Assembly (NCBI GenBank): GCA_028713935.1
Contig: JAQTNI010000018.1
Span: 1 to 23,790 of the forward strand
DNA from: Candidatus Iainarchaeum sp.
GTDB taxonomy: Archaea > Iainarchaeota > Iainarchaeia > Iainarchaeales > GCA-2688035
Reading direction: 5' to 3'
Length of the DNA: 23,790 nt
Of the stretch, positions 181 to 23,723 are shown in pieces. The position numbers and the translations under genes were made by a program. How positions within the stretch are numbered: the stretch's first letter is position 1; each line of letters opens with the position of its first letter. Below the pieces are notes generated by a model. It did not search any database, was not told where the DNA came from, and saw nothing but the letters and a program-made list of their open reading frames with translations.

Positions 181-549
181 TTGGCAATCAAAAGGTTTGG
201 TTCGATTAATGAAACTGCAAGCTTTGCGTGTATTTCTAAAACTACTCTCTGGAACTGGCTGTCAGAAAAATCAAATATCCCTCTTTGTGATTTGAAAAGA
301 ATAGTGAGAATTTTAGGCTTGAAAAGAGTAAAAAATAGTTGGATTGAACATTTTTCAACAATGAGAAAAATTTATTTTTTCAATGATTCTTCCAAATTGA
401 TTTCCTCGATTTTTCCGTTAGGTTGCTTTTCCGTAAATATTTGTGAACAAAATTTGAAGACATGTACTTCTGCAGAACGCCAAGTCGCTTTAGGTAACCC
501 TGCTTTAATGCAAGTTTGTTCTAACAATGTTTCAGAATTCCACGCATAA
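181..549 (+). pseudogene. Possible remnant of a helix-turn-helix gene; N-terminal HTH-like segment only
   Basis: Part of ORF 49..549. AIKRFGSINETASFACISKTTLWNWLSEKSNIPLCDLKRIVRILGL reads like an XRE-type HTH. The only in-frame candidate start near it is TTG at 181, after aaggaat. The 3' half is low quality and overlaps the convergent AMMECR1 gene by about 180 nt. The GTG at 49 sits inside a hairpin. Confidence 0.2.
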
Positions 550-995
550 TTTACCGGCACAATTGGTAGCAATAATCCGCTCCTGTATCCGCGCTGCACT
601 ATCAATCCGTCCTGGCCAATTTTGATTTTTTTTAGGCAATCCTTTTTTTCTCCAAAAATTTCTTCAGGCGCTGTAAGGACAGAAACTTCAATCAGAATTT
701 TTTCCAGTTCTTCTGCTTTTAATGGCAGGAATCTTGGATCGTGAAAACCGGCTTCAATAGCCACTTCAATTGTCGCTTCCCAGAGAGGCTTCACACCATA
801 AGGAAAGCCAATGCAGCCCCTTAATTCCTTGCTTGGAAACTCGTTAATTGTAACAAAAACCCCTCTTTCCTTCAAAAATTTGTCATTGCCTGCTTTTTCT
901 CGCCAAAAAGCCCCTGTTGCACTGTAATATTCAATGCTTTTTCTTGCAAGCTTGACTAATTCTTTTCCATCTTCAAGAGACAAAAGTTCAGGCAT
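372..995 (-). CDS. AMMECR1 domain protein
   Basis: Motifs GVFVTINEF...LRGCIGFPYG...AIEAGFHDPRF are characteristic of AMMECR1. I trimmed the TTG-initiated ORF (1085) to the ATG at 995 (MPELLSLEDGKELV), which removes a junk-like N-terminus and leaves an intergenic gap to the upstream gene. Confidence 0.88.
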   Translation of the reverse strand: MPELLSLEDGKELVKLARKSIEYYSATGAFWREKAGNDKFLKERGVFVTINEFPSKELRGCIGFPYGVKPLWEATIEVAIEAGFHDPRFLPLKAEELEKILIEVSVLTAPEEIFGEKKDCLKKIKIGQDGLIVQRGYRSGLLLPIVPVNYAWNSETLLEQTCIKAGLPKATWRSAEVHVFKFCSQIFTEKQPNGKIEEINLEESLKK

Positions 996-1087
996 TAAAA
1001 CACTTGAAGATAATGGGTGCCAAACTGTTTTTAATTTGCTTCTGAAAAAAAGAGCATTTATAAAAGCGGTTTTTGCAGCAATCAATT

Positions 1088-4000
1088 TCAGGGATTTCTA
1101 TGCGCTGCCCACATGGCATCAACAAAAACGCTGTTGTGATATCTGCTGTCTGCTCCGGTGCCGTGCAATTGCGGCAGCCTTCCAATTCCATCCGAAGCAT
1201 CAGTATCCAGAATGCAGGTTCCTGGATTTGCCGGATTATCCCCGAATTTTACGCCATAATCCTGTGCCCACAAGGCAGAATAATCGCACGTGCCGCCAGT
1301 GCAAACTGTTGCGGCATTAGCCGAAGTGCAGGCTGCATTCGGATTGTTTCCACCGGAACACAACCCTGTCATTGGAGCGCATGTGTCTGGTTGTGTCCAG
1401 GTTCCAAAAGAAACCCACCGGTCGGCATAAGTCAATTGTGCAGTGTCATTCCAAACGCTTGCCATTCCGGGAATAAGGTATTCGACAAGCGCGCTTCCCT
1501 TGAGCGCCTTGGAAGTGCAACAACCCTGATATAATCCGCCCGGAACAGAACCACCATCAATAAACAAATAAGGGTCTTTGCAGTCTTTTGAACTTTCATG
1601 GCCTTGCATGCGCAAGTCATTCCAATAACTCAGTGCTTCATTGCCATAATTGCATCGGTCTTGTCCCCAGATAACAGTTCCTATTGGGCTTGTCCAGGTG
1701 TTCCCGGTTTCCGCAAAAGCGTTTTTTGGCGCAGTGCTTACTGCATCTTTCATTGCCTGATTGTTCAATAGAACCGCGGCAAAAGCCAGTGGAAGTTTCA
1801 TTCCCAAATCATGCCCGCCATCAGCAGTCCAGCTTTGTCCCGCCGCACGCATTGCAAAAACATCGATTCCGTACTGCACCAATGCAATTACCGCCGCGCT
1901 TCTTTCCGCTTCAGAATCGCCTGTTTTTGCAAGCATTATGCGCAATGCAGCATCCGTGTTATTATTGGAAACATCCGGCCCATAGGGGTCGGTAAGCTGG
2001 AAATTATCCACCGGATGAATCTGGTCACCACTGTATCCAAGTTTGTGAACCAGTTGCACCCTGTCAATTTTTCTTTTTGCTGCAGCCAGTGTCGGCGCAA
2101 CAGCATCAATTGCCGGGCTCGTGGAAAGCCTTGGAAGAATATTCATCTGCAGACCAGTAGTGGAATACAGTGTTTTTTGGTTTCCGAAGTAGGCTGGCCT
2201 GAAAACGCTTGCTCCGTCATCTGAAGGAACAGTTCCCAAAACAGTTAGCACTGCTGCGGTTTGGAGGTAGGTCTTGAGGCCTGTTTGAGCATAAGGAATA
2301 ACAGAAATTGATTTTACAATAGAGGAATTTGAATTGACAGTACGTGGAAGTGCAGGAACAAGCGCTGCGTTAAAAGTTTCAGCCCGGGTATCGAATCCCT
2401 GCTGATTTAACGCTCCGGAAGGATTTATTTCCCAGCCATTATGCTGTCCGTCAAAAACGGGAGTCATGCTGGTAATTGTAACCGGCCCCAATACCCAGTA
2501 GTCTCCGTTGGCAAATTGTCCTGTTCTGTATCCTTTGTCAAAAGTCCAGGTAATTCCATATTGTGAAAGCGAATTCTGGCAAACAGGGCAGGAACCCCCG
2601 CAATCAACACCTGTTTCCCCATTATTTTGAACTCCGTCCGAACAAGTACCGCCACTGCTACCAACATACTCATAGGCGCCGATATCGTAACCGCTTCCTT
2701 GCGGGCGAGTAATACCGTCAATGTCAACGAACGGACTTGGCAAACTTACAGTCGAAGCCAGATTTGGGTCGCCTGTGTCTTTGACCGAGCTGGTGGGTTG
2801 TAGATGAAAGTCCCAGGCTGAACCAGGAACATAATTAACGAATTGCGGGTCTGCAACAATGTGATTGGAGCCTTCGTTGCTCCAGACACATCGCCCAATC
2901 CCGGTTCCCCAATAACAGGTTGAACCGCAAGCAGGCGATGTTAGCAATGGGTTGTAATAATAATCGTTGTAGTTTGAGTTTACGTTTGTTCCTTTCAGGT
3001 CAATGTTGGTAGAATACAAAATGTTATCTCTGGCAATTATGTTTGAAACATACGCTGCCGGTCCAGCAGTAATGCCAAATACCGGGCAAGTGCTGGCAAT
3101 TGTGTTGGAATGAATGTTCACATTCGAAATGGTTGGGATTGGGTCAAGCCCCATAATGCCGCCTAAACTCATGTCAATAAAGATTCCTTTGGCATTTCCA
3201 TACAGCAAGTCACTGTAAATCACATTCCCATAAATATCAATTTGGTCCTGGTTTCCGGGTGCTTCGTTTGAAAAATAAATATCCTCAGATGAATCTGAAA
3301 GAGTATTATAACGAATAATCAACCCATGCACAAAAGCAGATACACTAATGTTATCCTGATGGCCTGCGCCACCATCATGATAATGAATCCAGTTATTTTC
3401 AACGACAAGATTAGTGCCGTCTATAAGAAGCCCATCATTCCAGTTCTCGTGAACATTATTCCCACGAATGGTTAAATTGGTGTCGCGAACAGCAGAAATT
3501 CCATCCGCGCCAGTAGCATAAACCTCATTGTTTTCTAAGAGAGAATCCGACGACCACCAGGCAATATCAAGCCCGGTTCCCTGAACGTGGTGAACATAAT
3601 TTCCAATAATTTTCAGTCCGATTCCGCCTTGTCCTATTACGCCATCGCTTGTGTAATTTTTTATTTCAAACCCATCAACAGCAGTGTAATCGCTATTACC
3701 CAAATTGATTCCATAGTTGAGGCTGTTTTGCCCATCCAAAATTACCAAACAACCCGTTTTGCCCTGCTTTCCCCTGGCACTCGAATCCCCCTGACAACCT
3801 TCCCCCGAATACGCTTTGAATGTAATCAAATTCCCTGCAGTACCGGAGTGTTGCGGTTCCAGTGTTTCGTTGTATATTCCCGCTCGTACACAAACCACGT
3901 TTCCTGCAACTGCGCTTTGTCCTGCTTTTGTTAGTGTGCACCATGGTTGGGTTATTGTTCCGGGGTTGTTGTCGTTGCAGTTTCCTCCTAGGTTTGCTTT

Positions 4001-5437
4001 GTCGACGTAATGAGTGCAATCAAGACTTGCAGAATTAACTGTTAGTGAAATGTTTCTGGTTGTGTTTCCCTGTCCGTTGGTTGTGTTGGTGAAAGTTACG
4101 GTGTCAGAATAATTTCCTGTTGTCAAACTGTTTGCGTTCGAATTAATCGAAACAGTTACGGTATCAGTTGCTCCGCCAGTTAATGTTCCACTTGTTTTGT
4201 TCAAATCTAACCAGTTTTGGTCTTTAGTTGCTGTCCAGTTGATGCTGGTTGTTCCTGAATTAGTTAAAGTGTATTCTTGTGAATTTGGTGTGAATGGTCC
4301 TCCTGGTGAACCTGAACTGTTTAATCCAGTTGTTGGGTTAACTGTTAGTGCGTTGTTTGTTGGTGTTTCTAAATTGCAGATTGTAATGGTTTGTACTGAT
4401 GTTTGTCCGTTGTCTGCAATGTAACCTAAGTTGTTTATTTGCGTTATTGTGTTTTGGTCTGTTCTGAAGTTGTAATCAGTTGCCAGGTTTTGTTCTGCTT
4501 GCCCTTCAGGAGTTATTGTTACGCTGTACAAGTGGTTCGGAATGTTAATAGTGAGCTTGAAATGGTAAATTGTGCCTGCAGTGTATGCAATTGTGTTTTC
4601 TGCTGAATAGGTGTTTCCGTTTCTAACATCAATTGTTCCATTCGTGTTGAATCTTACAATGGTTGCTAAACTAGAGTATGCTGTTGCGTTTCCATTTGAA
4701 AAGCCTATTACTCCGTCAGAACTGTTTCCATCGGAACTTGCATCAAACTCTGCAACAAATGTGCTTGTTTGATTTTCAATTGAATGGTTCTGCCAGCTTG
4801 TTGTGCTTGTTTCACAGTATGTTCCTGTAAAGTTTTGGTTTGTTTGGCTTGTTGTTAGGTTTGTATAAGAATGGTTTTCTGGTTCAAAAGCCCAGTTTGT
4901 TAGGGTTGGTGTTGTTGTTCCTGTCCAGTGACAAGTTTCTGATAAAGAGTAATAACCGCTGCTGTTTGTTGTTGTGTTGTTTATTGTTACGTTTGGTATG
5001 GGTGTGTTGTTGTTTGTTTTTATGTAGCCTGAAATTGAAAGGTTTTGGTTGTTGCAGTTGCAATCCATGTTGTTTCCGCATTGGCTTGTTCCTGGAGCAT
5101 AAATGATTGTGCATTTTTGGTTTTTGCATTCGTTGTGGCAATTGTTTTCTGTACAAGTGCGTGGTATGCAGTTGATTGTGGTTTCTGGTGTGCATTGGCT
5201 TGGATTTGAACCTGGAACTTGGATGCACTGATTGTTTTTACACTCATAATGAAATTGTTGTGGGTTTGTTCCTATTGTTCCCCGGTTTATTGGGTTTCCG
5301 AAAATATCAGTGATTTGTTCTGGTAAAAAGCTTGGGTTTGTGTTTACAATGCCCAAGATGCTTGTGATTACTATTGCAGAAACTATAATTGCACCGCCAA
5401 TAATCAGCAAGTATTCCAAAGAACCCTGTGCGTTCAT
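1088..5437 (-). CDS. Giant secreted or pilin-anchored multidomain protein: class III signal peptide, Cys-rich modules, Ig/LamG-like units, parallel beta-helix, unassigned C-terminal domain
   Basis: Uninterrupted 1453-codon ORF. The track start is TTG at 5449 and the first ATG is at 5437, giving MNAQGSLEYLLIIGGAIIVSAIV (class III signal pattern). Beta-helix repeats (NNVHENWNDGLLIDGTNLVVENNWIHYHDGG, DIGAYEY end). CSDGVQNNGETGVDCGGSCPVC module at 2579-2644. Confidence 0.9.
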   Translation of the reverse strand: MNAQGSLEYLLIIGGAIIVSAIVITSILGIVNTNPSFLPEQITDIFGNPINRGTIGTNPQQFHYECKNNQCIQVPGSNPSQCTPETTINCIPRTCTENNCHNECKNQKCTIIYAPGTSQCGNNMDCNCNNQNLSISGYIKTNNNTPIPNVTINNTTTNSSGYYSLSETCHWTGTTTPTLTNWAFEPENHSYTNLTTSQTNQNFTGTYCETSTTSWQNHSIENQTSTFVAEFDASSDGNSSDGVIGFSNGNATAYSSLATIVRFNTNGTIDVRNGNTYSAENTIAYTAGTIYHFKLTINIPNHLYSVTITPEGQAEQNLATDYNFRTDQNTITQINNLGYIADNGQTSVQTITICNLETPTNNALTVNPTTGLNSSGSPGGPFTPNSQEYTLTNSGTTSINWTATKDQNWLDLNKTSGTLTGGATDTVTVSINSNANSLTTGNYSDTVTFTNTTNGQGNTTRNISLTVNSASLDCTHYVDKANLGGNCNDNNPGTITQPWCTLTKAGQSAVAGNVVCVRAGIYNETLEPQHSGTAGNLITFKAYSGEGCQGDSSARGKQGKTGCLVILDGQNSLNYGINLGNSDYTAVDGFEIKNYTSDGVIGQGGIGLKIIGNYVHHVQGTGLDIAWWSSDSLLENNEVYATGADGISAVRDTNLTIRGNNVHENWNDGLLIDGTNLVVENNWIHYHDGGAGHQDNISVSAFVHGLIIRYNTLSDSSEDIYFSNEAPGNQDQIDIYGNVIYSDLLYGNAKGIFIDMSLGGIMGLDPIPTISNVNIHSNTIASTCPVFGITAGPAAYVSNIIARDNILYSTNIDLKGTNVNSNYNDYYYNPLLTSPACGSTCYWGTGIGRCVWSNEGSNHIVADPQFVNYVPGSAWDFHLQPTSSVKDTGDPNLASTVSLPSPFVDIDGITRPQGSGYDIGAYEYVGSSGGTCSDGVQNNGETGVDCGGSCPVCQNSLSQYGITWTFDKGYRTGQFANGDYWVLGPVTITSMTPVFDGQHNGWEINPSGALNQQGFDTRAETFNAALVPALPRTVNSNSSIVKSISVIPYAQTGLKTYLQTAAVLTVLGTVPSDDGASVFRPAYFGNQKTLYSTTGLQMNILPRLSTSPAIDAVAPTLAAAKRKIDRVQLVHKLGYSGDQIHPVDNFQLTDPYGPDVSNNNTDAALRIMLAKTGDSEAERSAAVIALVQYGIDVFAMRAAGQSWTADGGHDLGMKLPLAFAAVLLNNQAMKDAVSTAPKNAFAETGNTWTSPIGTVIWGQDRCNYGNEALSYWNDLRMQGHESSKDCKDPYLFIDGGSVPGGLYQGCCTSKALKGSALVEYLIPGMASVWNDTAQLTYADRWVSFGTWTQPDTCAPMTGLCSGGNNPNAACTSANAATVCTGGTCDYSALWAQDYGVKFGDNPANPGTCILDTDASDGIGRLPQLHGTGADSRYHNSVFVDAMWAAHRNP

Positions 5438-5593
5438 CCACAAAAACAATGGCTTTTCAGAATAAATACTTTTCTATTGGGCCGGCTTTAGTTTAGGGCG
5501 TTATTGGAAGGATGCTCAAAAATTGCCTTTCTGTTTTTTGTCGAACTGCAGGCTGTTTTCTTAGGCCTTCTTTTTTGCCTTTTTGTTATAATT

Positions 5594-6117: not shown

Positions 6118-9100
6118 ATGAAAAAAATTCCAAAGTACTTTTTCATGGCATTGCTTCTTGCCGTAATTTTTTTTCTCTCCGGGTGTGTTTCCAATGAGCT
6201 TTCCGATTCTGAAAGATTTTTGTGCAGTGATTTGAGCAGCAAGTCTTTTGCTTTTGTGCCTGAATGTGATTCCCAGGAAAAATGTTTTGAAAAGGCCGAA
6301 TCAGAGCTTTTTAATTTTGATTCCAGTGCCCTGCCTCAAAATTCAAAATCAATGCTTTTTTCTCTTGAAAACAACCTTGCTTCAAGCTGGCTTTTTTTTG
6401 GCAAGGCAGGGAAAAACATAAAGGCAATCAATTCAATATGCTCTTCAGGAGAAAATCTGCAGGGCCTTGCTTCAGAGATAAATGAATTGAACCACAATCT
6501 CGCAAATTCTTTCAAATTTTCAGACAAGGCAAGCAAATTTGCTTTTGCAATTCTGTCTGAAGAAGGGCAAAACCTTGATTCCGAAAAAATTTTTCTTGCA
6601 AAAGAAGAGCCATTGTTCAGCGATTTTATTCTTTTGAACAACAACCTTAATGATTTGCAGGCGCAAAGCCTCAATTCAGAATCTTTTTCAGGATATTACC
6701 TTGTCCAGATGAAAAGCCTTGAAGGCCTGATGCAGAAAACAGGCTTTGAAAGGGATTTTGTTGAAGAAGAAACCCCGATTGATTTTTTCAGGCAGCATGA
6801 ATCGGAAATAATGGGCTCGGAACAGTCAAAAAGAATCCTGAAAATTCCCTTTATTTCCAAAACAATTGATTATTTTGTTTCTTTTCTGGATGGCTTTTTG
6901 AGAATCAATTCCGCTTCTGAAGCGCTTGCAAAAATGCCTGCTTTTGAATATTTGCAGGCATACAATAACCTTGCAGGCACGGAAAATTCCGCAATTAAAA
7001 AATTTTCCGAACTCCTCAAATTTGATTCTTTGCACAGGCTTGAATTGCTTGAAAGGAATTCAATGCTTGAAATGCAAATCCTTGAAAAAATCAATTCGGC
7101 TTCACAAAAAATTGATTCGCTTTCAGCAAGGGAATTTGTTTCTTTTGACACAAATTTTTTTGCGGAGCTTTACTCTCTTTTAGAAGGGGATTCGCAGCTT
7201 GAAACACAGAAGTTTGCACTTCAGGATTTTTCAGGCTTTCGGGAAAAGGCGCTTGCAGAGCTTCTCCCAATGCAGGTTAGCATAAACGAACTGAAGCAAA
7301 AAAGCGTTTTGGGAACAATCACAATCGGCGAAAGAACAGAAGCCCTGAAAAACCTGGATCTTGATGTTTCCTCTTTGATTGAAAACCTTTCTTTTTTGGA
7401 ATCAGAGGCAATTTCAGGCCTTGAAGTGCTCTGTGAAGAAAGAACAGGCAAAATTTCTGATTTTCTTGATGAACAGGAAAAGGGGCTGTTTCTGCAAAGC
7501 GAATCAGACCTTGCAGCAAGGCTAAGGTTCAGGATTTCAGAATTCAAGGAAGCAGAGGATTTTGACAAAAAGCTTTTTTTGTGCAAAAGCGCAATAGAGG
7601 AATTCAATGATTTGAAGCTTTCAGTCCAGGATTCAAAAGAATATTTGCTTAAGCAGGCCCTATCGCTGGACAATTGCTTTGAAAGCCTGGAAAAAATTTT
7701 TTCTTCAAGGCAGCCCCTTATAGACCTTTCAGATTTCCAGTTAAGGCTTGAAAAAATAAAGCGGATTGAAAAGCCCTATTCCGACCTTGAAAGCGTGAAA
7801 AGGTTCTGCGATTTGCTCCAAAAAGACACAATTAATTTCCTGAATTACAATTCCGAAATAATTGCACTGAAAAAAAGCTTTTCCCATTCAAAAGAATTGC
7901 TTGAAAAACTTGTTCTTGTAAATGAGCGCTCAGGCAATTTTTCTTCAGGCATTTCCCTTAGTGCTTTCCAGTCAAGGCTTTCAGGGAACGCAAAATATTT
8001 TTCAGAAAACTCAGTTATCTTTGAAAAAGCGCTTCCTGTCCTGCCCGACCTTAAAGAAAGCCTTTTTTCTCTGGAAGAAAGCCTTGAAAAAGAGCTTGAC
8101 AAGGCAATAGCGGATTTTGCATCAAAAAATTCTTCAATTGAATATTTCTTTGATTCAGTGCCTGAACTGAACAATGATTTCAATGCGCGCATAAGAATAA
8201 CTGCAACCAACCCTTTCCAGGCAACAAAAAAAGTTTCCCTGAAAATCCCTTTCTCCGGCTTTGCTTCCCGGCCTGCACTGCCGGAAAACATGGTTTTCAG
8301 TGATGGCTTCCTTTTCATTGGCCTTGATTCTCTCCCTTTAGGAATTTCTTTTTTTGAATTCCAGGCAATGCAAAGCATTCCCTTTGAAGAGGAAACAATT
8401 GTGCTGAGCGCAACAGAAGCAACAGTTGCGCTTGAAAAAAAGCTTGTGCTCAAAACAACTGCTTCTTTGCCACGCATCAAAATAGAAACAAAGCTCATTG
8501 ATTCAAAAGCCTCTCCCCTGGACATTTTCATTGCTTGCAAAAACCCGGTTTCGGCTTTTTCCCTGCAGGAAAACAAAATTTCTTTTTTCATTGACAAGCC
8601 AATCCCAAACCAGCAAATTGAAATATATTTTTCAATTCCCAAAGGAATTGATTCTTCAATTGCACTGGATTCCTCAAAACAGGCAGACATGAACAATTTT
8701 GAAAGCACTTTCTCAATTTTAATAAAAAACACTCTGCCAATTGCAATTGAAAACGCATCCTTTTCACTTTCCATTCCACTTTCCCAAGAAAAAATAACAA
8801 ATTTTTTTGTCCTTGATTCAGCAGGAGAAAAAGCCCCATCAAAAATAAATTCTGGCAAATTGCTGTTTGAGCTGAAAAAAATCTTCCCATTTGAAACAAA
8901 AAAATTTTTGCTGGCACTTTCCTACAAAGACAGCACTGGCTTCTGGCTTGGATTCCTTGAAAAAACAAGGCAAACAGCAGAACTTCTTTCTTCCCCTGAA
9001 GGAAAAGGACTGCTTGCAGAACTCTCTTCTTTTTCCGAAACAGACCTGAAAAACGATTCAAAAATTTCAAGGCTTGTTTCAATTGCAGGCGAAATTTCAA

Positions 9101-10284
9101 AATTAGCCTCTTATGAAAGCAGCAGGCAAAGCACAATGGAACAATTTTTTCCCCTTAAAAGCAAAATAGAGGAACAAATTTCTTTGCTTGAATCAAACTC
9201 CCTGTTAATGCAAAAAGCAGGGGTTTCAGAAAAACAGCTCGCAGGAGCAATTGCAAGCGCAAAAAGCCTTGCACTGCAGGCAGAGTCGCTTTTTAATTCC
9301 GGCTCTTTTGAAGAAGCCCTGAAAACTCTTTTCAAGGCAAACTCATCCTTGCAGGAAGCTGATTTGCAGGCTTTTTCAAAAAAACTTCTCTCTCAGAAAG
9401 CAAAGCTTCTTGAAAAGCCAAACAATTTCTGGGCACAGCTTGTTTCATTAAAAGAAACGGAAAAATTTGCCAGTGACCACGATTCATTGCTTTCAAGCGA
9501 TTCAGAAATTGAAAACAGCATTGCAACAGGAGATTTCAACAAGGCTGTTTTTTTGCTTGACTCACTTGAAAAAAAATCAGGCGCATTTGCCTCAAAAACA
9601 GAGTCTTTTCTTTCTGAAAAAGCCAAGGCAGTTTCAGAAAGGCTGGATTTTTTTACAAAAGCCATTTCAAAAACAATTCCCGAAAAAATCTCTTCTTTGC
9701 GTTCTCTCCTTGAAAGCGTTCCGGAAGAAACAGCCTCAAAGCTTGGTTATGTTGCCCCAATTTCAAAAGAAAGGCTCCAGAAGCTTGAACTCCAATTGAA
9801 TTCATTGCAGGGAACAAAGCTTTCAGAACAAGCCCTTTCTTTCAAAGAACTTGTTTCAGCCAAGCAATTTTCAGAAGCATTAAAAAAATTCTCGGAATTT
9901 GAAGCGGAATTTGAAAAAAAAGAAACAGAATTAAAATCCATGGAATCAGAGCTTGATTCCGCAATTTCCTCAATGAAAGAAGATGCTGCTTCTGCAATAA
10001 ACAAGGCTTCCGCATACTTAAGCTCTGGCCAATTCAATGCGGAAGCAATGGACTTGATTTCAAAATCAAAAACAAATTTTGAAAAAAAAGATTTTTTGAA
10101 GTCAATTGCATTTGCAAATGCGGCAACAGCAATGCTCGCAATGCCAAAAGCACAATTTGACATTCCGGTTTTTCTTTATCCAATCATAATCGGAATCTGC
10201 CTTGTTTTTATAGCAAGATACAAAAAGCGCCTTGCAAAAGAAAAAAAAGTTGAATTCAGGAAAATCCTGAGAAAACAGGAATAA
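6118..10284 (+). CDS. Giant envelope protein: lipobox signal peptide, long helical or coiled-coil regions, central beta-rich region, C-terminal TM anchor
   Basis: 1388-codon ORF with an ATG start. N-terminus MKKIPKYFFMALLLAVIFFLSGC, with the lipobox LSGC Cys at 6184-6186. C-terminus IPVFLYPIIIGICLVFIARYKKRLAKEKK (TM helix plus basic tail). The composition is dominated by S, L, E, K, F and A, with heptad-like stretches. aa about 700-950 look beta-rich. Confidence 0.85.
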   Translation: MKKIPKYFFMALLLAVIFFLSGCVSNELSDSERFLCSDLSSKSFAFVPECDSQEKCFEKAESELFNFDSSALPQNSKSMLFSLENNLASSWLFFGKAGKNIKAINSICSSGENLQGLASEINELNHNLANSFKFSDKASKFAFAILSEEGQNLDSEKIFLAKEEPLFSDFILLNNNLNDLQAQSLNSESFSGYYLVQMKSLEGLMQKTGFERDFVEEETPIDFFRQHESEIMGSEQSKRILKIPFISKTIDYFVSFLDGFLRINSASEALAKMPAFEYLQAYNNLAGTENSAIKKFSELLKFDSLHRLELLERNSMLEMQILEKINSASQKIDSLSAREFVSFDTNFFAELYSLLEGDSQLETQKFALQDFSGFREKALAELLPMQVSINELKQKSVLGTITIGERTEALKNLDLDVSSLIENLSFLESEAISGLEVLCEERTGKISDFLDEQEKGLFLQSESDLAARLRFRISEFKEAEDFDKKLFLCKSAIEEFNDLKLSVQDSKEYLLKQALSLDNCFESLEKIFSSRQPLIDLSDFQLRLEKIKRIEKPYSDLESVKRFCDLLQKDTINFLNYNSEIIALKKSFSHSKELLEKLVLVNERSGNFSSGISLSAFQSRLSGNAKYFSENSVIFEKALPVLPDLKESLFSLEESLEKELDKAIADFASKNSSIEYFFDSVPELNNDFNARIRITATNPFQATKKVSLKIPFSGFASRPALPENMVFSDGFLFIGLDSLPLGISFFEFQAMQSIPFEEETIVLSATEATVALEKKLVLKTTASLPRIKIETKLIDSKASPLDIFIACKNPVSAFSLQENKISFFIDKPIPNQQIEIYFSIPKGIDSSIALDSSKQADMNNFESTFSILIKNTLPIAIENASFSLSIPLSQEKITNFFVLDSAGEKAPSKINSGKLLFELKKIFPFETKKFLLALSYKDSTGFWLGFLEKTRQTAELLSSPEGKGLLAELSSFSETDLKNDSKISRLVSIAGEISKLASYESSRQSTMEQFFPLKSKIEEQISLLESNSLLMQKAGVSEKQLAGAIASAKSLALQAESLFNSGSFEEALKTLFKANSSLQEADLQAFSKKLLSQKAKLLEKPNNFWAQLVSLKETEKFASDHDSLLSSDSEIENSIATGDFNKAVFLLDSLEKKSGAFASKTESFLSEKAKAVSERLDFFTKAISKTIPEKISSLRSLLESVPEETASKLGYVAPISKERLQKLELQLNSLQGTKLSEQALSFKELVSAKQFSEALKKFSEFEAEFEKKETELKSMESELDSAISSMKEDAASAINKASAYLSSGQFNAEAMDLISKSKTNFEKKDFLKSIAFANAATAMLAMPKAQFDIPVFLYPIIIGICLVFIARYKKRLAKEKKVEFRKILRKQE

Positions 10285-10974: not shown

Positions 10975-12219
10975 TCACTTGCTCTTCATTATGTAGACAT
11001 AGACTGCTATTCCGATTATTACGAGAATAATCACTGCAATTATTTCCAGGCCTATTCCGGGCTGTTCAAAAACAAGTTTTGAATTTTCGCATTTTGATTC
11101 TGCAAAATTAAAATCGGAATAAACAAGCTTGCAGCCAATGTCAAATGTCCCTGCCTGGCTAGCAGTTGCATCAAAACTCAATTGGATTGTTTCTCCAGGC
11201 GCAATTGTTTCAATTGTTTTTGTCTGGGTTCCCGTGATGCTTATTCCGGGAGGCGCAATTATTGATGCCTCAATGTTGTAAAGCCTGTCTTTTCCCCTGC
11301 TTGTCACATTAAGCACCAAAGGCACTGTCTGTCCAAGCTGGTTAATTTCTTTTTCTTTTTCAATAAAGGCATCAACTTTTTTTTCAGGCTCCCTTATTTT
11401 TATTGTTGCCTGGCCTGAAAAAATAACTTCTTGTTCTCCAAATTCGTTTGTATAATAAACAGCCGCAGGCGGCAGAGTAATGCTGCCAATCACTCTTGGC
11501 TTTATTACATAATCAATTTTTATGTCACTGCCTGGCTCAATTGTTCCCTGTGCATAGGCTTTTCCTTCAATAAAAACAAAGGCTTTTTTTTCCTCTGCAA
11601 TTGGCCTTGCATACTTTAATTCTATTTCTGCAGGGCCAGACCCTGCATTATGTAGATTTACTGTTACTTTTGTTGTGTCCCCTATTACCATTTCGCTTTT
11701 GTCTGCAGTTGTTGTAAAATAATCTGCTGTTTTAAACGGGTATTGCTTGCCAAATTGCGCTGTTTTATAGAGGCCGATTTTTGATGAATTTTTCAGGTTT
11801 ATTGAAGCAGTGCTGTTTGAGGCGTGCAGGCAAATATCAAGCCTGTTTGTCCCTTCCAAGAGATTTTCTTTTGGCAGCCATATCCTGCTCCAGCATTCAG
11901 TGCCATTGCACTTGAATTCAGTGGTTTTTTTTTCTGCAAGAGGCGCATTGTTTATGTTAACATCGATTTTTGCTGCTTCTGACGCAACAGGGGAAAAATC
12001 GGAATTCAGGGATAAAATCGGGTAATTCCCATTTGAAAATGCATTTTGGTCAGAAGGAAAACCGAAATCGACAAAAGTGCAGGCAGTGCTGCCAGGGCTG
12101 TCAACTGAAAAATTTTGATAGCCGAGTTCCTGAAAATTTTTTTCAAAAACAGTTTCTGCGCTGGCAAAGCCAGCAAAGAGCAATATCAGTAAGCATGCCA
12201 ATAGCAATTTAACCTTCAT
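10975..12219 (-). CDS. Secreted surface protein with CARDB/DUF11-like beta-sandwich repeats and a C-terminal TM anchor (S-layer-like)
   Basis: Trimmed from GTG 12225 to ATG 12219, giving MKVKLLLACLLILLFAGFASA/ETV (Sec signal). aggggtg Shine-Dalgarno site 3-9 nt upstream. Repeats of the TKVTVNLHNAGSGPAEIELKY and IAPGETIQLSFDATASQAGTF type. C-terminus QPGIGLEIIAVIILVIIGIAVYVYIMKSK. Confidence 0.82.
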   Translation of the reverse strand: MKVKLLLACLLILLFAGFASAETVFEKNFQELGYQNFSVDSPGSTACTFVDFGFPSDQNAFSNGNYPILSLNSDFSPVASEAAKIDVNINNAPLAEKKTTEFKCNGTECWSRIWLPKENLLEGTNRLDICLHASNSTASINLKNSSKIGLYKTAQFGKQYPFKTADYFTTTADKSEMVIGDTTKVTVNLHNAGSGPAEIELKYARPIAEEKKAFVFIEGKAYAQGTIEPGSDIKIDYVIKPRVIGSITLPPAAVYYTNEFGEQEVIFSGQATIKIREPEKKVDAFIEKEKEINQLGQTVPLVLNVTSRGKDRLYNIEASIIAPPGISITGTQTKTIETIAPGETIQLSFDATASQAGTFDIGCKLVYSDFNFAESKCENSKLVFEQPGIGLEIIAVIILVIIGIAVYVYIMKSK

Positions 12220-12256
12220 TTGCACCCCTTTCCTTGTACTTTATTAATTGCATAAA

Positions 12257-13333: not shown

Positions 13334-14401
13334 TTATGGAATTGCCTCTGTAAATTCTGCAAGCGAATTATCCAGTTCTTGTTTTGAAATAATGCCCTCT
13401 TTGATTAATTCTTTTATCTCGGGAATTTTTTCTTTTAGCTTATTTGCGAGCATTTTGGTTGTGGAACAGTAGAATTGCATTTTTTTAGGGAACTCTTGCC
13501 ATGCCCTAAGGCATCGGCCTCCGCATATTTTCCTTATTTTGCATCCATTGCAAAAAATATTTTTGCCGCAGGCGCGCAGTTTTTCATGGTTTATTCCCTG
13601 CTGGACACTTCCAATGTGAAATTTTTCCCTGCCAATCAGGTCATCGCAGATAAAGCATTCTCCGCCTGTATCTATAGCAACTGTTTTTGAGCCGGCACCG
13701 CAACGGAAAGAGTGGTTTTCTTTTTCAAATAGCAGGGAGGAAACAATTGCCTGAAAAGGAATGATTTTTTTTACGATTCCCTCGTGCAGGTGATTAGTCC
13801 AGTAGCCAATCAGCAAATCAAGGTCATCTGAATAACTGGACAAGCAATCCTTTGGATTTGTTATTGTGCTTGGGCTGTTTTCAATTTGCCAGTGAACATT
13901 ATCAAACCAATTAACAACTCCGAGAACTGAAGAATAAATAGAATTGCCAGGGATATGGCAGAGCCTTGCAATTGTTTTTCCTTCAAACCTATTTTTAACC
14001 GCAAACATATTCTGGATTATTTTTTCAAAAGTTCCCGGTCCTCTAAATTTGTCATGTACCCTGTGCTCGCCATCAATGGAAATAAAAAGCGCGTCCAATT
14101 TTTTCAGCAAAAACGGATCGATATTATCCAGCATTGTGCCGTTTGTAAACGACAGGTATTCCAATTTGCCAAATTTTGTTTTTCTGATAACATCTTTTAT
14201 AAATTCTTGGTTTAGCAGGGGTTCTCCTCCGTAAAAAACAACGCCATTCTTTGGATGTTTTTCTTTTTTCATATCCTGCAAAACAAAGCCTGCAATTTCC
14301 TCTGCGCTGCATTGTTGCGTTTTGCCTGTCCTTATGGTTGAGTTTGAGCAAAAAGAGCAGTTTAGGTTGCAGGCATCTGTTGTGTATATCCAGTATTCCA
14401 C
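13334..14401 (-). CDS. Radical SAM / SPASM-domain maturase (anSME-like peptide or protein-modifying enzyme)
   Basis: CNLNCSFC (CX3CX2C) at residues 11-18. GGEPLL motif. C-terminal CGAGSKTVAIDTGGEC followed by CNGCKIRKICGGRC, an exact CX2CX5CX3C SPASM signature. The start codon is GTG (14399-14401), and this is forced because the next Met lies after the cluster motif. Confidence 0.9.
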   Translation of the reverse strand: MEYWIYTTDACNLNCSFCSNSTIRTGKTQQCSAEEIAGFVLQDMKKEKHPKNGVVFYGGEPLLNQEFIKDVIRKTKFGKLEYLSFTNGTMLDNIDPFLLKKLDALFISIDGEHRVHDKFRGPGTFEKIIQNMFAVKNRFEGKTIARLCHIPGNSIYSSVLGVVNWFDNVHWQIENSPSTITNPKDCLSSYSDDLDLLIGYWTNHLHEGIVKKIIPFQAIVSSLLFEKENHSFRCGAGSKTVAIDTGGECFICDDLIGREKFHIGSVQQGINHEKLRACGKNIFCNGCKIRKICGGRCLRAWQEFPKKMQFYCSTTKMLANKLKEKIPEIKELIKEGIISKQELDNSLAEFTEAIP

Positions 14402-19507: not shown

Positions 19508-20848
19508 ATGAACAGGAACCAGATTATTGCGCTTGCAATTGGAATTCTAATGATTTCCTCGACAATTGGCTTTGCTTTTCTCAGCGTTACAAACCAGCAG
19601 CCAGGCAATCCTGACACTTCAGGCAATACTGACAACACTCCTGTTCCGCCTGCCAGTGAAATAAAATTCAAGGCAGATTCGCAGAAAGCAAAAGTTGTTG
19701 ACATTTTGCCTTTAATAAAAATTTTTGGCGCCACTTCGGAATATGACATCCAAAAAATTGACGCCTCAATTTATGGAATAACCGGAGTAAAAAAAATTTC
19801 CTCTGTTTTTGACACCACTTCTGCTTCTTCCCTTACTTATGTTGCGGAAATTTCACTTGAACCAGGCCTCTCTCCGCAAATGCTTGTAAAAGAAATAACT
19901 GGCAGAAAAATCCTTTCTTCCCCTGATGGAGTTTCGTATGCCGTTGTTGAACTTCCAAAAAAAATTGTTTTCCAGAGCGAAAACTCTGATTTGAACCTTT
20001 CAAAAGAATACGAGTTTGCAGATTCCCAGGGCCAGGCATTGATTGGCTTTGGAAGCATCAAGGGCGATGAGATCTTGGTAAGCGTTTCAGCCACTTTTGC
20101 AGGTTCAAAGCTTGTTAATTTGATTTCTGTTGAAGAAGAAAATCTCACTGCAAAACAATTGTCTGGCACTGCAAGCCTTGAATTGCCAATCAAGTCCCTT
20201 GAACCAAACCTTGTTTTTTCAGCAAAAGCATTTTTTTCAAACAATCCTGCTTCGGAAGAATTGAAATCAAAAATAAGCCAGATACAGGATTTTAATTCAG
20301 TTGAAATTGAAGCCGCAAGCATTGCGCCAAAAATAACCCTTTCAGGCGAAACTGCCTTGCCGGAAGAGCAAGTGCATGACCTCAATGTTTTTGTCCAATC
20401 GCTTAATCCGCAGAGCGCCTCTTTTTTCAATCAAGGCGGATTTTCCGCTTCAATTCCTTTTGATTCTGACGCAAACCTTGCAGATGCAAAAGCAAGGCTT
20501 GAAGCCCAATTAAAAACAATGGGCCTGGAAAACGTGCTTGCAGAGGAAAATTCAGGCACTCTTTATGGAAATGTTTCCCTGCAGCAAACAGGCACAGGAA
20601 CTCCTGCGCTTCAATTAAGGCAGGTTCTTGATTCCTATTCCCTCCTGGAAATCCAAATCCTTCAGCCGGCAGGGCTTGAATTAAGCGGCATTTTTGATGC
20701 CAATGCAAACGCAACTTATGCAATTGACTCTAATTCAATTCCTGCACAAATAAAGCCAGGCCATTCAATTGGCGAAAAATTAAAGGCAAGCATTCTTTAT
20801 TACACAAGCAGGGGCAAAATCATTTACATTGCGGCAGAAGAAGAATAA
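19508..20848 (+). CDS. Hypothetical N-terminally membrane-anchored extracytoplasmic protein (446 aa)
   Basis: ATG start. MNRNQIIALAIGILMISSTIGFAFLSV signal-anchor, then a Pro/Thr/Asn linker and a Ser/Leu/Glu-rich body. I recognise no motif. Confidence 0.7.
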   Translation: MNRNQIIALAIGILMISSTIGFAFLSVTNQQPGNPDTSGNTDNTPVPPASEIKFKADSQKAKVVDILPLIKIFGATSEYDIQKIDASIYGITGVKKISSVFDTTSASSLTYVAEISLEPGLSPQMLVKEITGRKILSSPDGVSYAVVELPKKIVFQSENSDLNLSKEYEFADSQGQALIGFGSIKGDEILVSVSATFAGSKLVNLISVEEENLTAKQLSGTASLELPIKSLEPNLVFSAKAFFSNNPASEELKSKISQIQDFNSVEIEAASIAPKITLSGETALPEEQVHDLNVFVQSLNPQSASFFNQGGFSASIPFDSDANLADAKARLEAQLKTMGLENVLAEENSGTLYGNVSLQQTGTGTPALQLRQVLDSYSLLEIQILQPAGLELSGIFDANANATYAIDSNSIPAQIKPGHSIGEKLKASILYYTSRGKIIYIAAEEE

Positions 20849-21685: not shown

Positions 21686-22708
21686 TTAATTGCTCGGATT
21701 AGGGCTTTTCCTTTGCACAACAAAAACAATTGTGAAAACACAGGCCGCAACAATTATTGCGCCAAGCCAGTTTGTTTCTGGCACGCTTGCAGTGCTTGGC
21801 GGGTTTGCAAGTGCAAAATTGACTATCTGGCTTGCCACTGCTGTACCGTCACTGTCAAACACTTCAATCAAAAGAGTATAAATGCCCGGGTTTAAGCTGT
21901 CAAGGTCTGCTGCATCATATGTTGCGCGCGTAGGCGGGTCTGTTCTTCCTACTGCATCATCAATCATAATATCCGCTGTCTTTGTTGGCATAGGAGCGGG
22001 AGGATTTACAAATTGCACGCTTATTGTGCCTTCTTTGTTTATTGCAAGATACGCTGTTTTGCCTTCAATATCGCTAAGCTCAGCAGTTTTTGATTTTGCC
22101 AAAGCCTCTGTGCCCGCAGCTGCTTTTGCAATTGTTACATCAACATTCATTGGCTGACCTTTATAAGCTGGGTTTGGAACAACAATTTTTTCAATTATCA
22201 GGCTGCCTGTTGCCTGGCTTGCACAAATTGTTTGTGGATAAAGCGGGTCAAGCGGAACAGAACATTGTGCAAGATGCGCATTTGTAACATCGCTTAATGC
22301 AACAATGCAGGTTTCCCCTGTATTGCAGCCCCAGTTTCTTAATGTAATGCCTGTTAACTGTTGCGCTGAACCATCTGAATCAATGCAAACGTCAGTATAT
22401 CCCGCAGTTGCTTCCGCAGGACCTTCTGCATGCGCATTTGTGTTTCCGCTTAATCTCAGCATTATTTTTGCAGAACCAGCGCCGCATGCTGCGCTTTTTA
22501 TTCCACTGCAGCAAATTTTTCCATAACCTGCAGGGATAGCGCTTGGAACTGCTGCATGTGAATTTGTAAAAGTAGTGCCGTCTGAAATTCCCAATACTGC
22601 TGTTTCTGCCCCCGAACAATCCGCTTTTGCTGTGCAGGTTATTGCTGCTTGCGCAGTCAGTGGCAAAGCAAGCAGAATCAAAATTAAAATAAAGATTTTT
22701 TTTTCCAT
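21686..22708 (-). CDS. Secreted Cys-rich surface protein with three TN[AS]H modules, an Ig-like region and a C-terminal TM anchor
   Basis: Trimmed from TTG 22714 to ATG 22708, giving MEKKIFILILILLALPLTAQA/AIT (Sec signal). Three related Cys-framed modules. C-terminus VPETNWLGAIIVAACVFTIVFVVQRKSPNPSN. Confidence 0.8.
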   Translation of the reverse strand: MEKKIFILILILLALPLTAQAAITCTAKADCSGAETAVLGISDGTTFTNSHAAVPSAIPAGYGKICCSGIKSAACGAGSAKIMLRLSGNTNAHAEGPAEATAGYTDVCIDSDGSAQQLTGITLRNWGCNTGETCIVALSDVTNAHLAQCSVPLDPLYPQTICASQATGSLIIEKIVVPNPAYKGQPMNVDVTIAKAAAGTEALAKSKTAELSDIEGKTAYLAINKEGTISVQFVNPPAPMPTKTADIMIDDAVGRTDPPTRATYDAADLDSLNPGIYTLLIEVFDSDGTAVASQIVNFALANPPSTASVPETNWLGAIIVAACVFTIVFVVQRKSPNPSN

Positions 22709-22775
22709 AGCCAAGCCTTTTTGTGTTTATTATATATCGGTTTCCTTGTTTTTAAATATTGCTTTGGTTTTTTTG

Positions 22776-22847: not shown

Positions 22848-23723
22848 TCATGCGTTTCCCCTCATTTTCTCAACAAACGCTTGAGCTGGAGTTCTCAAGT
22901 GTCCATTAGTCAAGCTCATGTGATGGATGTCGTTGTTGTAAGCTGATACTGCTTTTTGAACTGAACCGTAGTGTTTTTTGAGTTTTTTTAGTGTGCCGAA
23001 CCAGCGTTCCATTTTGCCGTTTGTTTGTGGGTGTTTTACTCTTGCTTTGATGTGTTGGATGCCATATTTTTTGAGTGTTTGTTGAAACAAGTTGTCTTGT
23101 GGTTCTGGACAGGCTTCTTTTCCTATTGAAGTGAACTGCACTCCATGGTCTGAAACCAGTTGCCTGGGAGCGCCATATGAATAGATTGCTTTTGTTAGAA
23201 TGTCTGCTGCGTTCTCTGCAGTTGCATTATCATACTCGTTGCAAGCGGGAACAAAGCGGGAAGCATCATCAAGAACACCAACAACTTGTTTCTCATCTAT
23301 CTCGCAATAATCAATATGCCACAGACTGTTGCTGTGTTTTCTCTCATAGCGAATCCATTTGCGCTTATTGCTCTTTGTGGGTTGTTCTTGAGCCAGCTTC
23401 TTTTCTCGCAGAACACAGTGAATAGTATTGTGTGGAATGTGCACTCCCTGATAGTCCAAAAACTGTTCCATTTTCACAGCCCCAATAGGCGTTTTCTTGA
23501 ATGTTTGTTCAATCAACTGTTGCGTTTCAAACGGTATTGGCACAGGTTTCTTGCCAGGCCTTTTGGGAAAAGGAAACTGGTCTGTTTCCAGATAGCGCTC
23601 AAACAGTTTTCTCACCCAACGAGCTGTTACTCCCTGTTGTTTGGCAATCTGCCAAACACTCAGTTCGCCCAACCGCATTTGTTTTATAATCCACCGAACC
23701 TTGTTTTTGTTCAGCTTCCTCAT
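22848..23723 (-). CDS. DDE transposase / integrase core (rve) with N-terminal HTH
   Basis: HTH: LSVWQIAKQQGVTARWVRKLFERY. Catalytic triad context: WHIDYC (D), SDHGVQFTS (D), HPQTNGKMERWFGTLK (E). ATG preceded by a GGAGGT Shine-Dalgarno site. Confidence 0.9.
   Translation of the reverse strand: MRKLNKNKVRWIIKQMRLGELSVWQIAKQQGVTARWVRKLFERYLETDQFPFPKRPGKKPVPIPFETQQLIEQTFKKTPIGAVKMEQFLDYQGVHIPHNTIHCVLREKKLAQEQPTKSNKRKWIRYERKHSNSLWHIDYCEIDEKQVVGVLDDASRFVPACNEYDNATAENAADILTKAIYSYGAPRQLVSDHGVQFTSIGKEACPEPQDNLFQQTLKKYGIQHIKARVKHPQTNGKMERWFGTLKKLKKHYGSVQKAVSAYNNDIHHMSLTNGHLRTPAQAFVEKMRGNA

Follow-up and report, generated by a model that had tools for sequence, protein, structure and literature searches.

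A predicted pilin-type class III signal on a 1449-residue, putatively glycan-directed surface protein of Candidatus Iainarchaeum

We analyzed a 23,790-nt stretch of DNA (hereafter the window; contig JAQTNI010000018.1, positions 1 to 23,790, assembly GCA_028713935.1) from the DPANN archaeon Candidatus Iainarchaeum sp. The subject of this work is a gene on its minus strand, at positions 1088-5437, that encodes a protein of 1449 amino acids. The head of this protein (aa 1-205) is predicted to be a lineage-specific archaeal cassette that contains a class III signal, a helix of ~25 residues, and Cys-rich and Cna-B-like modules. The body is predicted to be built from modules with bacterial-type relatives, namely a LamG-like carbohydrate-binding module (CBM), a BACON domain, a beta-helix, and a 495-aa C-terminal domain. 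Our favored explanation, which we regard as reasonably probable when taken as a whole, is that this is a glycosylated surface protein that binds and probably cleaves glycans and that is held by a pilin-like helix.

A homologue search with the full-length protein was dominated by BACON-repeat proteins, and only two of the proteins found were informative. P0080 (1160 aa, Candidatus ainarchaeum sp.) is related to the head, and P0024, a choice-of-anchor Q protein, is related to the body. With these and a partial record, P0121, the gene can be divided into the following features:

1088-5437, minus strand: complete open reading frame for 1449 aa plus stop codon, read from the sequence, with the ATG at 5437 and the stop at 1088-1090
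5461-5468, minus strand: TATA-like box TATTTATT, read directly, ~27 nt upstream of the ATG at 5437
5339-5437, minus strand: aa 1-33, MNA leader, predicted cleavage site between Ala3 and Gln4, Glu at +5, Tyr at +6, and a single hydrophobic helix (from PF04021, hydropathy, and relatives)
5246-5338, minus strand: aa 34-64, conserved linker (NPSFLPEQITDIFGNP...PQQFHY), near-identical in P0080
5045-5245, minus strand: aa 65-131, Cys-rich module with 11 Cys, all kept in P0080
4814-5044, minus strand: aa 132-208, CarboxypepD_reg/Cna-B-like beta-sandwich with 9 sequons, where the cassette common to P0080 ends
4364-4813, minus strand: aa 209-358, LamG/concanavalin-like module of the Sialidase-like CBM type (from PF22585 and identity with P0024)
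4022-4363, minus strand: aa 359-472, BACON Ig-like domain (Pfam BACON_2, significant, E=1.9e-8 at aa 385-454)
2663-4021, minus strand: aa 473-925, predicted right-handed parallel beta-helix, DUF1565-like in its cap and of the choice-of-anchor-Q kind at its end (DIGAYEY), from homology, NCBIfam, and fold matches
2576-2662, minus strand: aa 926-954, small 4-Cys knot or linker (CSDGVQNNGETGVDCGGSCPVC), also in the independent partial record P0121
1091-2575, minus strand: aa 955-1449, uncharacterized domain in which a helical part accompanies a beta-sandwich at the N-terminal end, candidate for a new catalytic domain active on glycans

The product opens with MNAQGSLEYLLIIGGAIIVSAIVITSILGIV, and after the predicted cut MNA is followed by QGSLEYLLIIGGAI. 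With cleavage after Ala3, positions -1, +1, +5, and +6 would be taken by Ala, Gln, Glu, and Tyr, respectively (MNA↓QGSLEY, where the arrow marks the cut). Flp/Tad pilins have the related site pattern G↓XXXXEY. Pfam Class_IIIsignal (PF04021) matched aa 3-24 with 23.8 bits, a bare pass of the cut-off of 23.7. Across the whole protein, 19-residue Kyte-Doolittle windows above 1.6 began solely at aa 4-17 (spanning aa 4-35, peak 2.73). Because this is the sole hydrophobic stretch in 1449 residues, the protein is predicted to have no other membrane anchor. Translation of the window in all six frames contains two copies of the motif [GAS]Q.[STA].E[YFL], and the one in this gene is the only copy that heads an open reading frame. 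Known EppA-type sites read RAQI, KGQV, KGQL, and KGQI and Gln is required at +1 (PMC4371748). Based on the residues at -1, +1, +5, and +6, we assigned the site to the EppA/DUF361 pattern of Methanococcus Epd pilins. The assignment of the N-terminus as a pilin-type class III signal (EppA/DUF361, Flp-like A↓QxxxEY) is thus supported by the motif. A preliminary description of this DNA, made from the letters alone, had already proposed a class III signal on this large chain, with Gln at +1 and Glu at +5 after a cut at Ala3. That proposal is upheld by the PF04021 match, the single hydrophobic segment, and the presence of the same N-terminus in type IV filament operons.

These operons came from searches for proteins that share the N-terminus. 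A first metagenome scan returned no loci, and a second, with signal-only patterns, returned 30 loci with 28 unique related N-termini. Scanning the genome collection gave one locus (L001). A word-index search with the N-terminal 205 aa returned no matches and missed even the known relative P0080. The related proteins start with [K/N/S][A/G]↓QG[A/S][L/I]EY followed by a hydrophobic run, mostly LLIIGGA. Gln at +1, Gly at +2, Glu at +5, and Tyr at +6 were invariant in all 28 unique N-termini, an invariance that is partly forced by the scan patterns. Proteins shorter than 200 aa, and therefore pilin-sized, carry 20 of the 28, in line with the earlier remark that signals of this type usually head small pilins. 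In L003, on a 40-kb contig, genes for a T2SSE ATPase and two T2SSF platform proteins are directly followed by the gene for a small QG[AS]LEY protein, with a Peptidase_A24/Arc_PepC prepilin peptidase gene further downstream. L028, on a 118-kb contig, has this same layout with the Peptidase_A24/Arc_PepC gene immediately after the pilin gene. The L028 pilin starts with MKA↓QGSLEY, a three-residue leader of the type found in the 1449-aa protein. A single ATPase combined with a split, two-gene platform defines 'system 1', which a 2026 census of type IV filaments describes in methanogens and DPANN archaea (bioRxiv 10.64898/2026.04.22.720090).

The L001 locus (209-3069 of Candidatus Iainarchaeum JAFGEM010000015.1) encodes, in a tandem array, three proteins of ~210 aa that each begin in a class III-like manner (AQAGLEYLMTYGW, AQSLPEYMMTYG, and AQSTLEYLLTYGW). 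The array is followed by genes for a 267-aa MKAQGSLEY protein and a 542-aa secreted protein, and looks like a minor-pilin cluster.

Several features of the 1449-aa protein count against a pilin-type signal. The Class_IIIsignal score exceeds its cut-off by just 0.1 bit. Residue -2 is Asn2 and not Lys or Arg, and the alternative upstream TTG start described below supplies neither. A basic residue at this position has been called characteristic of archaeal class III sites (PMC3387779, PMC4371748), and a strict FlaFind-type rule would probably reject MNA↓QGSLEY (PMC3387779). Residue -2 is Lys in 24 of the 28 related N-termini, Asn in three, and Ser in one, a position that was constrained in the first scan pattern only. 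No pilin-like globular domain follows the helix, where there is instead a linker and the Cys-rich module; in this the protein departs from type IV pilins, which are small and have a globular domain packed on the helix. The preliminary description had also called for a search of the wider genome for prepilin peptidase, pilus ATPase, and PilC genes. Within the 23.8-kb window, the profile scan of the encoded proteins found no ATPase, platform, or A24 peptidase gene. The 1449-aa gene is thus not encoded within or beside a type IV filament locus and its neighbors encode AMMECR1, a DUF2283 protein, and a 1388-aa surface protein. This arrangement is not decisive, as many archaeal pilins are encoded away from such loci (PMC4371748).

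One explanation for these features is that the N-terminus is an uncleaved signal-anchor. The 1449-aa protein would then be a type II surface protein, with a class III look-alike that goes unprocessed for want of a basic -2 residue and with no link to a pilus. Such an anchor would account for the Asn in a leader of just three residues, given that a basic -2 is described as characteristic (PMC3387779), as well as for the threshold-level Pfam score and the window without filament genes. However, a plain anchor needs no motif, and Q-G-S-L-E-Y is kept to the residue in pilin-sized proteins encoded beside A24 peptidases. Asn at -2 also recurs in the proteins of L006 and of L008 and L010, and the L008 N-terminus scores 29.4 bits for Class_IIIsignal despite this Asn. 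In addition, position -2 is Lys in the sister protein P0080, whose head is otherwise identical. We therefore consider an unprocessed anchor unlikely.

We compared the protein with its relatives to determine whether the fusion is one real, recurring gene. P0080 is 55% identical to it over aa 1-203, a stretch that takes in the signal, the linker (FLPxQITDIFGNP), the Cys-rich module with every Cys retained, and the Cna-B-like unit. The body of P0080 differs and contains Laminin_G_3, Cys repeats, and another beta-helix that ends in DIGAFEY. In the L006 protein (1216 aa), the signal is combined with a Cys-rich region, a BACON domain that shares 59% identity with the one in the 1449-aa protein, PKD, and a beta-helix whose end reads DIGALE. 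The joining of this signal to a beta-helix, whose conservation had been raised as a check, is accordingly found in both homologues. The L008 (3204-4469) and L010 proteins are 422 aa long with a MNAQGSLEY start, a Cys-rich region, and a Peptidase_M64 domain (IgA-peptidase-like, HEFGH). In the body, aa 210-923 are 33% identical to P0024, which carries PF13229 and PF07602. Because P0024 aligns across this length, the LamG-like module through the end of the beta-helix is probably one inherited unit. The partial protein P0121, on a 2,658-nt contig, is 100% identical to the 1449-aa protein, starts at DIGAYEY, and includes the Cys knot. It is labeled Candidatus ainarchaeum sp., in keeping with the earlier suggestion of a small-genome archaeon, here a DPANN archaeon. 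The junction between beta-helix and C-terminal domain is also present in three unrelated members of the C-terminal family (P0251, P0335, and P0313).

These comparisons bear on whether the gene is an assembly chimera, in which pieces from separate genes would have been fused in frame at a module that they have in common. The modules are common to paralogous proteins, the contig of P0121 breaks inside the gene near the beta-helix/C-terminal junction, and G+C climbs from about 0.38 to 0.45-0.50 in the 3' half, all of which might be expected of a false join. Yet P0121 still has DIGAYEY and the Cys knot ahead of the C-terminal domain, and P0251, P0335, and P0313 show the same junction. P0024 spans the LamG-like module to the beta-helix end, and P0080 runs from the signal to the Cna-B module and then into a LamG/beta-helix body. 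The 4.3-kb reading frame is open throughout. The shift in G+C at third codon positions (GC3) is small (0.37-0.46 versus 0.31-0.42 in neighboring genes) and most of the G+C rise is compositional. An assembly artifact is therefore very improbable. We do not claim a recent horizontal transfer of the 3' half, which is weakly supported given the small GC3 shift.

The domain order given in the preliminary description was essentially right, with some assignments resting partly on homologues. Pfam CarboxypepD_reg on aa 134-202 (E=0.016) and Sialidase-like_CBM (PF22585, E=0.0027) were both sub-threshold. The LamG-like module is 40-41% identical to each of the three copies of this module in P0024. N-x-S/T sequons had been estimated at about 20 between aa 125 and 480; we counted 21 there, 28 in the whole protein, and 7 in the 969 residues after aa 480. 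Shuffling aa 125-480 gave 15.3 +/- 3.0 sequons, so the enrichment is modest, mostly because of the N/S/T-rich composition of this region. The distribution of predicted sites fits a glycosylated stalk that bears less-glycosylated modules with bacterial-type relatives.

Pfam Beta_helix had no match on the 1449-aa protein itself. At its start, the predicted beta-helix matches two solved structures, in the N-terminal cap only: 3vst, a GH120 xylosidase, and 5olq, a rhamnogalacturonan lyase. Its end is NCBIfam choice_anch_Q (NF041518, 43.7 bits, aa 871-924). Among the homologues found, aa 473-925 are common only to P0024 and P0022. The AlphaFold2 (AF2) model of this region was made from a three-sequence alignment and has low confidence (predicted local distance difference test, pLDDT, 48.9), and we used it at the level of fold only. 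Its PDB matches, among those listed at E<=3e-3, are almost all right-handed beta-helix proteins. They include inulin lyases of glycoside hydrolase (GH) family GH91, GH110, GH28, polysaccharide lyase (PL) family PL9, the lyase RbmB, a fucoidan lyase, and AlgE epimerases, as well as phage tailspikes and the adhesin PfbA. Based on this modeling, aa 473-925 are predicted to form a right-handed beta-helix of the polysaccharide-lyase/tailspike kind, which settles the fold and not the activity.

The C-terminal ~500 aa are present as the preliminary description stated, although it left them as an unnamed extra and they are the most unusual part of the protein. This region (aa 955-1449) has no Pfam or NCBIfam match and a profile search of the PDB returned no match. 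A word-index search found 338 homologues with 36-50% identity, and among the best 120 of these 338 none had a Pfam domain on the region. With an exhaustive HMMER search, the number of representative clusters was 2,690 at E<=1e-3 and 715 at the stricter E<=1e-30. The family spans bacteria, phages, one eukaryote (Acytostelium), and the archaeon that encodes the 1449-aa protein. Most members are bacterial, stand alone, and are 480-620 aa long. Of 224 complete members, 185 begin with a hydrophobic signal, often a lipobox, and none has the class III motif. In an alignment of 40 sequences, ~35 positions are invariant, with N, R, Y, E, and D residues among them, and one His is nearly so. Conserved residues of the 1449-aa protein include N1005, R1080, Y1152, H1209, E1243, D1288, D1294, Y1303, R1340, D1351, and R1420. 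The AF2 model of aa 955-1449 (pLDDT 94, predicted template modeling score 0.93) is a beta-sandwich followed by a helical domain. The viral structure library BFVD contained two strong matches to it (E about 1e-26, TM 0.61-0.65).

Relatives of this domain in phages were located with tblastn in 21 cluster J mycobacteriophages and two Microcystis phages. The mycobacteriophage relative is a 706-aa protein made of Laminin_G_3 and the C-terminal domain, with a minor-tail-like N-terminus (a minor-tail PHROG match), and its gene sits between minor tail genes and the lysis cassette. The PHROG of the phage relatives, 34846, is annotated as 'unknown function'. In cluster J phages Redno2 (gp43) and Zelink (gp46) the C-terminal domain is 28% identical over 78% and is preceded by a LamG-type module, as in the archaeal protein; these differ in being phage proteins whose function is unknown. 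In Redno2 (NC_022066.1, L035 6287-10219), gp43 is labeled 'lysin A' and gp45 'endolysin / Lysin B'. The Zelink (L037) equivalents are gp46, a hypothetical protein, gp48, LysA, and gp50, LysB. We rejected the 'lysin A' label on Redno2 gp43 on two grounds: a distinct LysA is annotated in Zelink two genes downstream, and the N-terminus of gp43 matches a minor-tail PHROG. The lysis-gene labels of Redno2 appear to be shifted relative to those of Zelink.

In bacteria, the family gene lay within Wzx/Wzy/glycosyltransferase polysaccharide clusters in two of five contexts, and other members adjoin a GH25 or YkuD gene. The fusion partners in 45 multidomain members are Laminin_G_3 (18), PG_binding_1 (6), fn3, PKD, CBM9, one GH5, and one Beta_helix. 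Secretion, invariant residues, fusion partners, polysaccharide-cluster contexts, and phage tail-region relatives together point to a putative extracellular enzyme that would act on polysaccharide or cell-wall glycan. A carbohydrate-directed body, as the preliminary description had suggested with its carbohydrate-binding or -cleaving head, is likewise plausible from the LamG-like CBM, BACON, choice_anch_Q, the carbohydrate-active enzyme folds matched by the beta-helix, and the contexts of the C-terminal family.

Other results argue for caution about catalysis. Foldseek against the PDB gave no significant match for aa 955-1449 (best E=0.33, TM <=0.2), and the weak list leans to (alpha/alpha)-toroid GH and PL entries as a hint only. 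The low-confidence beta-helix model has PfbA, a pure adhesin, among its matches, and catalysis by either region is predicted from relatives and fold. The protein might instead be a non-catalytic adhesin in which the beta-helix and C-terminal domain only bind glycan of a partner surface or matrix, as PfbA does, with the pilin-type head serving for attachment. LamG and BACON are binding modules, and LamG proteins are expanded in DPANN archaea and sometimes linked to type IV pilus loci (PMC5498576). No catalytic family was recognized in the Pfam, NCBIfam, PDB profile, or Foldseek searches, which also suits an adhesin. By contrast, most of the beta-helix fold matches are enzymes, and some 35 invariant positions that include Asp, Glu, Tyr, and Arg, with the nearly invariant His, are more typical of an active site. 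Stand-alone members of the family also occur in polysaccharide-synthesis clusters, where processing hydrolases and lyases are common. A purely adhesive role is, in our judgment, possible but rather doubtful.

Under the favored explanation of a glycan-binding and probably glycan-cleaving surface protein, the 1449-aa protein would be inserted by Sec and an A24 (EppA-like) prepilin peptidase would remove the Met-Asn-Ala leader. The mature product would be held solely through its pilin-like N-terminal helix. It may sit in the membrane beside type IV filament machinery, as in a bindosome, or may be the tip or initiating subunit of an Epd-like pilus. Incorporation into the shaft is unlikely because the protein is ~150 kDa. 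The N/S/T-rich, sequon-dense stalk (aa 125-480, with Cys-rich, Cna-B-like, LamG-like, and BACON modules) would be N-glycosylated and would project the beta-helix and C-terminal domain outward. There, these two domains would bind, and probably cleave, an extracellular or cell-envelope polysaccharide. In a more specific version, the protein is a working subunit mounted on the tip or pseudopilus of an Epd-like filament, a polysaccharide depolymerase that binds and locally digests the envelope or matrix of a partner cell. We think this version unlikely to be correct; if true, such a filament-mounted depolymerase would amount to an 'enzymatic pilus' comparable to a phage tailspike, with a catalytic domain that lacks a solved structural neighbor and is shared with phage tail-region proteins.

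Class III signals on non-pilins are established for sugar-binding proteins of Sulfolobus and are predicted widely in surveys (PMC4371748, PMC3387779, bioRxiv 10.64898/2026.04.22.720090). The bindosome proteins GlcS, AraS, and TreS of Sulfolobus/Saccharolobus resemble the 1449-aa protein in being non-pilin working proteins that bear a class III signal, encoded outside a type IV filament locus, and are thought to be held at the surface via the pilin-like helix by dedicated filament machinery (PMC4371748; bioRxiv 10.64898/2026.04.22.720090). They differ in being solute-binding, linked to ABC transporters, and processed by PibD, whereas the 1449-aa protein has an EppA/Gln+1 signal and a body of CBM, beta-helix, and uncharacterized domain. 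No solute-binding protein family was found in the 1449-aa protein and no transporter among the neighbors scanned. The EppA-dependent Epd pilins of Methanococcus maripaludis and the related bacterial Flp/Tad pilins resemble the 1449-aa protein in their short leader, in the residues around the cut (Gly/Ala before it, then Gln, Glu, and Tyr at +1, +5, and +6), and in the long hydrophobic helix that follows. Its relatives are also encoded in an Epd-like layout, in which a single ATPase is accompanied by a two-gene platform and an A24 peptidase. Unlike these small pilins, it is 1449 aa long, has Asn at -2, and has neither a pilin globular domain nor adjoining filament genes in the window.

ComZ of Thermus thermophilus, a minor or tip pilin, combines a pilin N-terminus with a large beta-solenoid-type domain and is proposed to lie at the pilus tip (PMC6561018). 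It differs in being bacterial, smaller in scale by about 0.5 kb of protein, and DNA-binding, and its insert is surrounded by a retained pilin fold; in the 1449-aa protein no such fold is detectable. P0024 shares 33% identity over the LamG-like CBM and the whole beta-helix with its D-x-G-A-Y-E end. It differs in that its signal is Sec-like and of a bacterial type and its chain ends with the beta-helix; the archaeal protein has the class III cassette ahead of this stretch and the 495-aa domain after it. Some archaeal type IV filament loci are accompanied by large adhesin-like proteins (PMC4858521). In the literature that we could search, we found no account of a DPANN protein that couples an EppA-type cassette directly to a body of CBM, beta-helix, and unknown enzyme.

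The 1449-aa protein would extend the known archaeal use of pilin-type signals for working proteins. For the still open question of how DPANN archaea attach to their partners and feed on them, a conserved, swappable class III head cassette on bodies whose nearest relatives are bacterial secreted glycan-active proteins offers a concrete, testable case. Its processing and location bear on whether the type IV filament machinery of archaea is able to display large enzymes. The C-terminal family, with about 2,700 clusters, is a good target for a new family of polysaccharide-active enzymes, a lead that is separate from the signal.

The open reading frame found mechanically reaches four codons further upstream, to a TTG at 5449. 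The spacing of the TATA-like box to the ATG at 5437 corresponds to the usual geometry of archaeal promoters. Because of this spacing we prefer the ATG over the TTG, and the spacing favors a leaderless transcript that would start at or near the ATG.

The window also encodes a proteasome beta subunit, a beta-CASP RNase of the aCPSF1 type, an Lrp-type regulator, and AMMECR1, which identify it as archaeal. No tRNA or Rfam features were found in the window. Divergent from the 1449-aa gene, positions 6118-10284 on the plus strand encode a 1388-aa protein with a lipobox-like N-terminus (FFLSGC) and no significant Pfam family. Its body is long, helical-looking, and rich in S, E, L, and K, and ends in a C-terminal transmembrane segment and a basic tail. 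This protein may be another giant surface protein encoded at the locus. Three further predicted envelope proteins are encoded in the window. At 10975-12225 on the minus strand is a 416-aa protein with a signal, TRAP_beta/BatD/NPCBM_assoc/CARDB-like Ig domains, and a C-terminal transmembrane segment. A 446-aa protein with an N-terminal transmembrane segment and no Pfam match is encoded at 19508-20848 on the plus strand, and a 342-aa Cys-rich protein with a signal, a C-terminal transmembrane segment, and no Pfam match at 21686-22714 on the minus strand. The region is thus predicted to be rich in surface proteins with C-terminal anchors, unlike the 1449-aa protein. An rve-type integrase/transposase with an N-terminal helix-turn-helix (22848-23723, minus strand) lies at the window edge, indicating that a mobile element is close to this surface-protein region. 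A radical SAM/4Fe-4S (Fer4_12) protein with a Cys-rich C-terminus is encoded at 13334-14401 on the minus strand.

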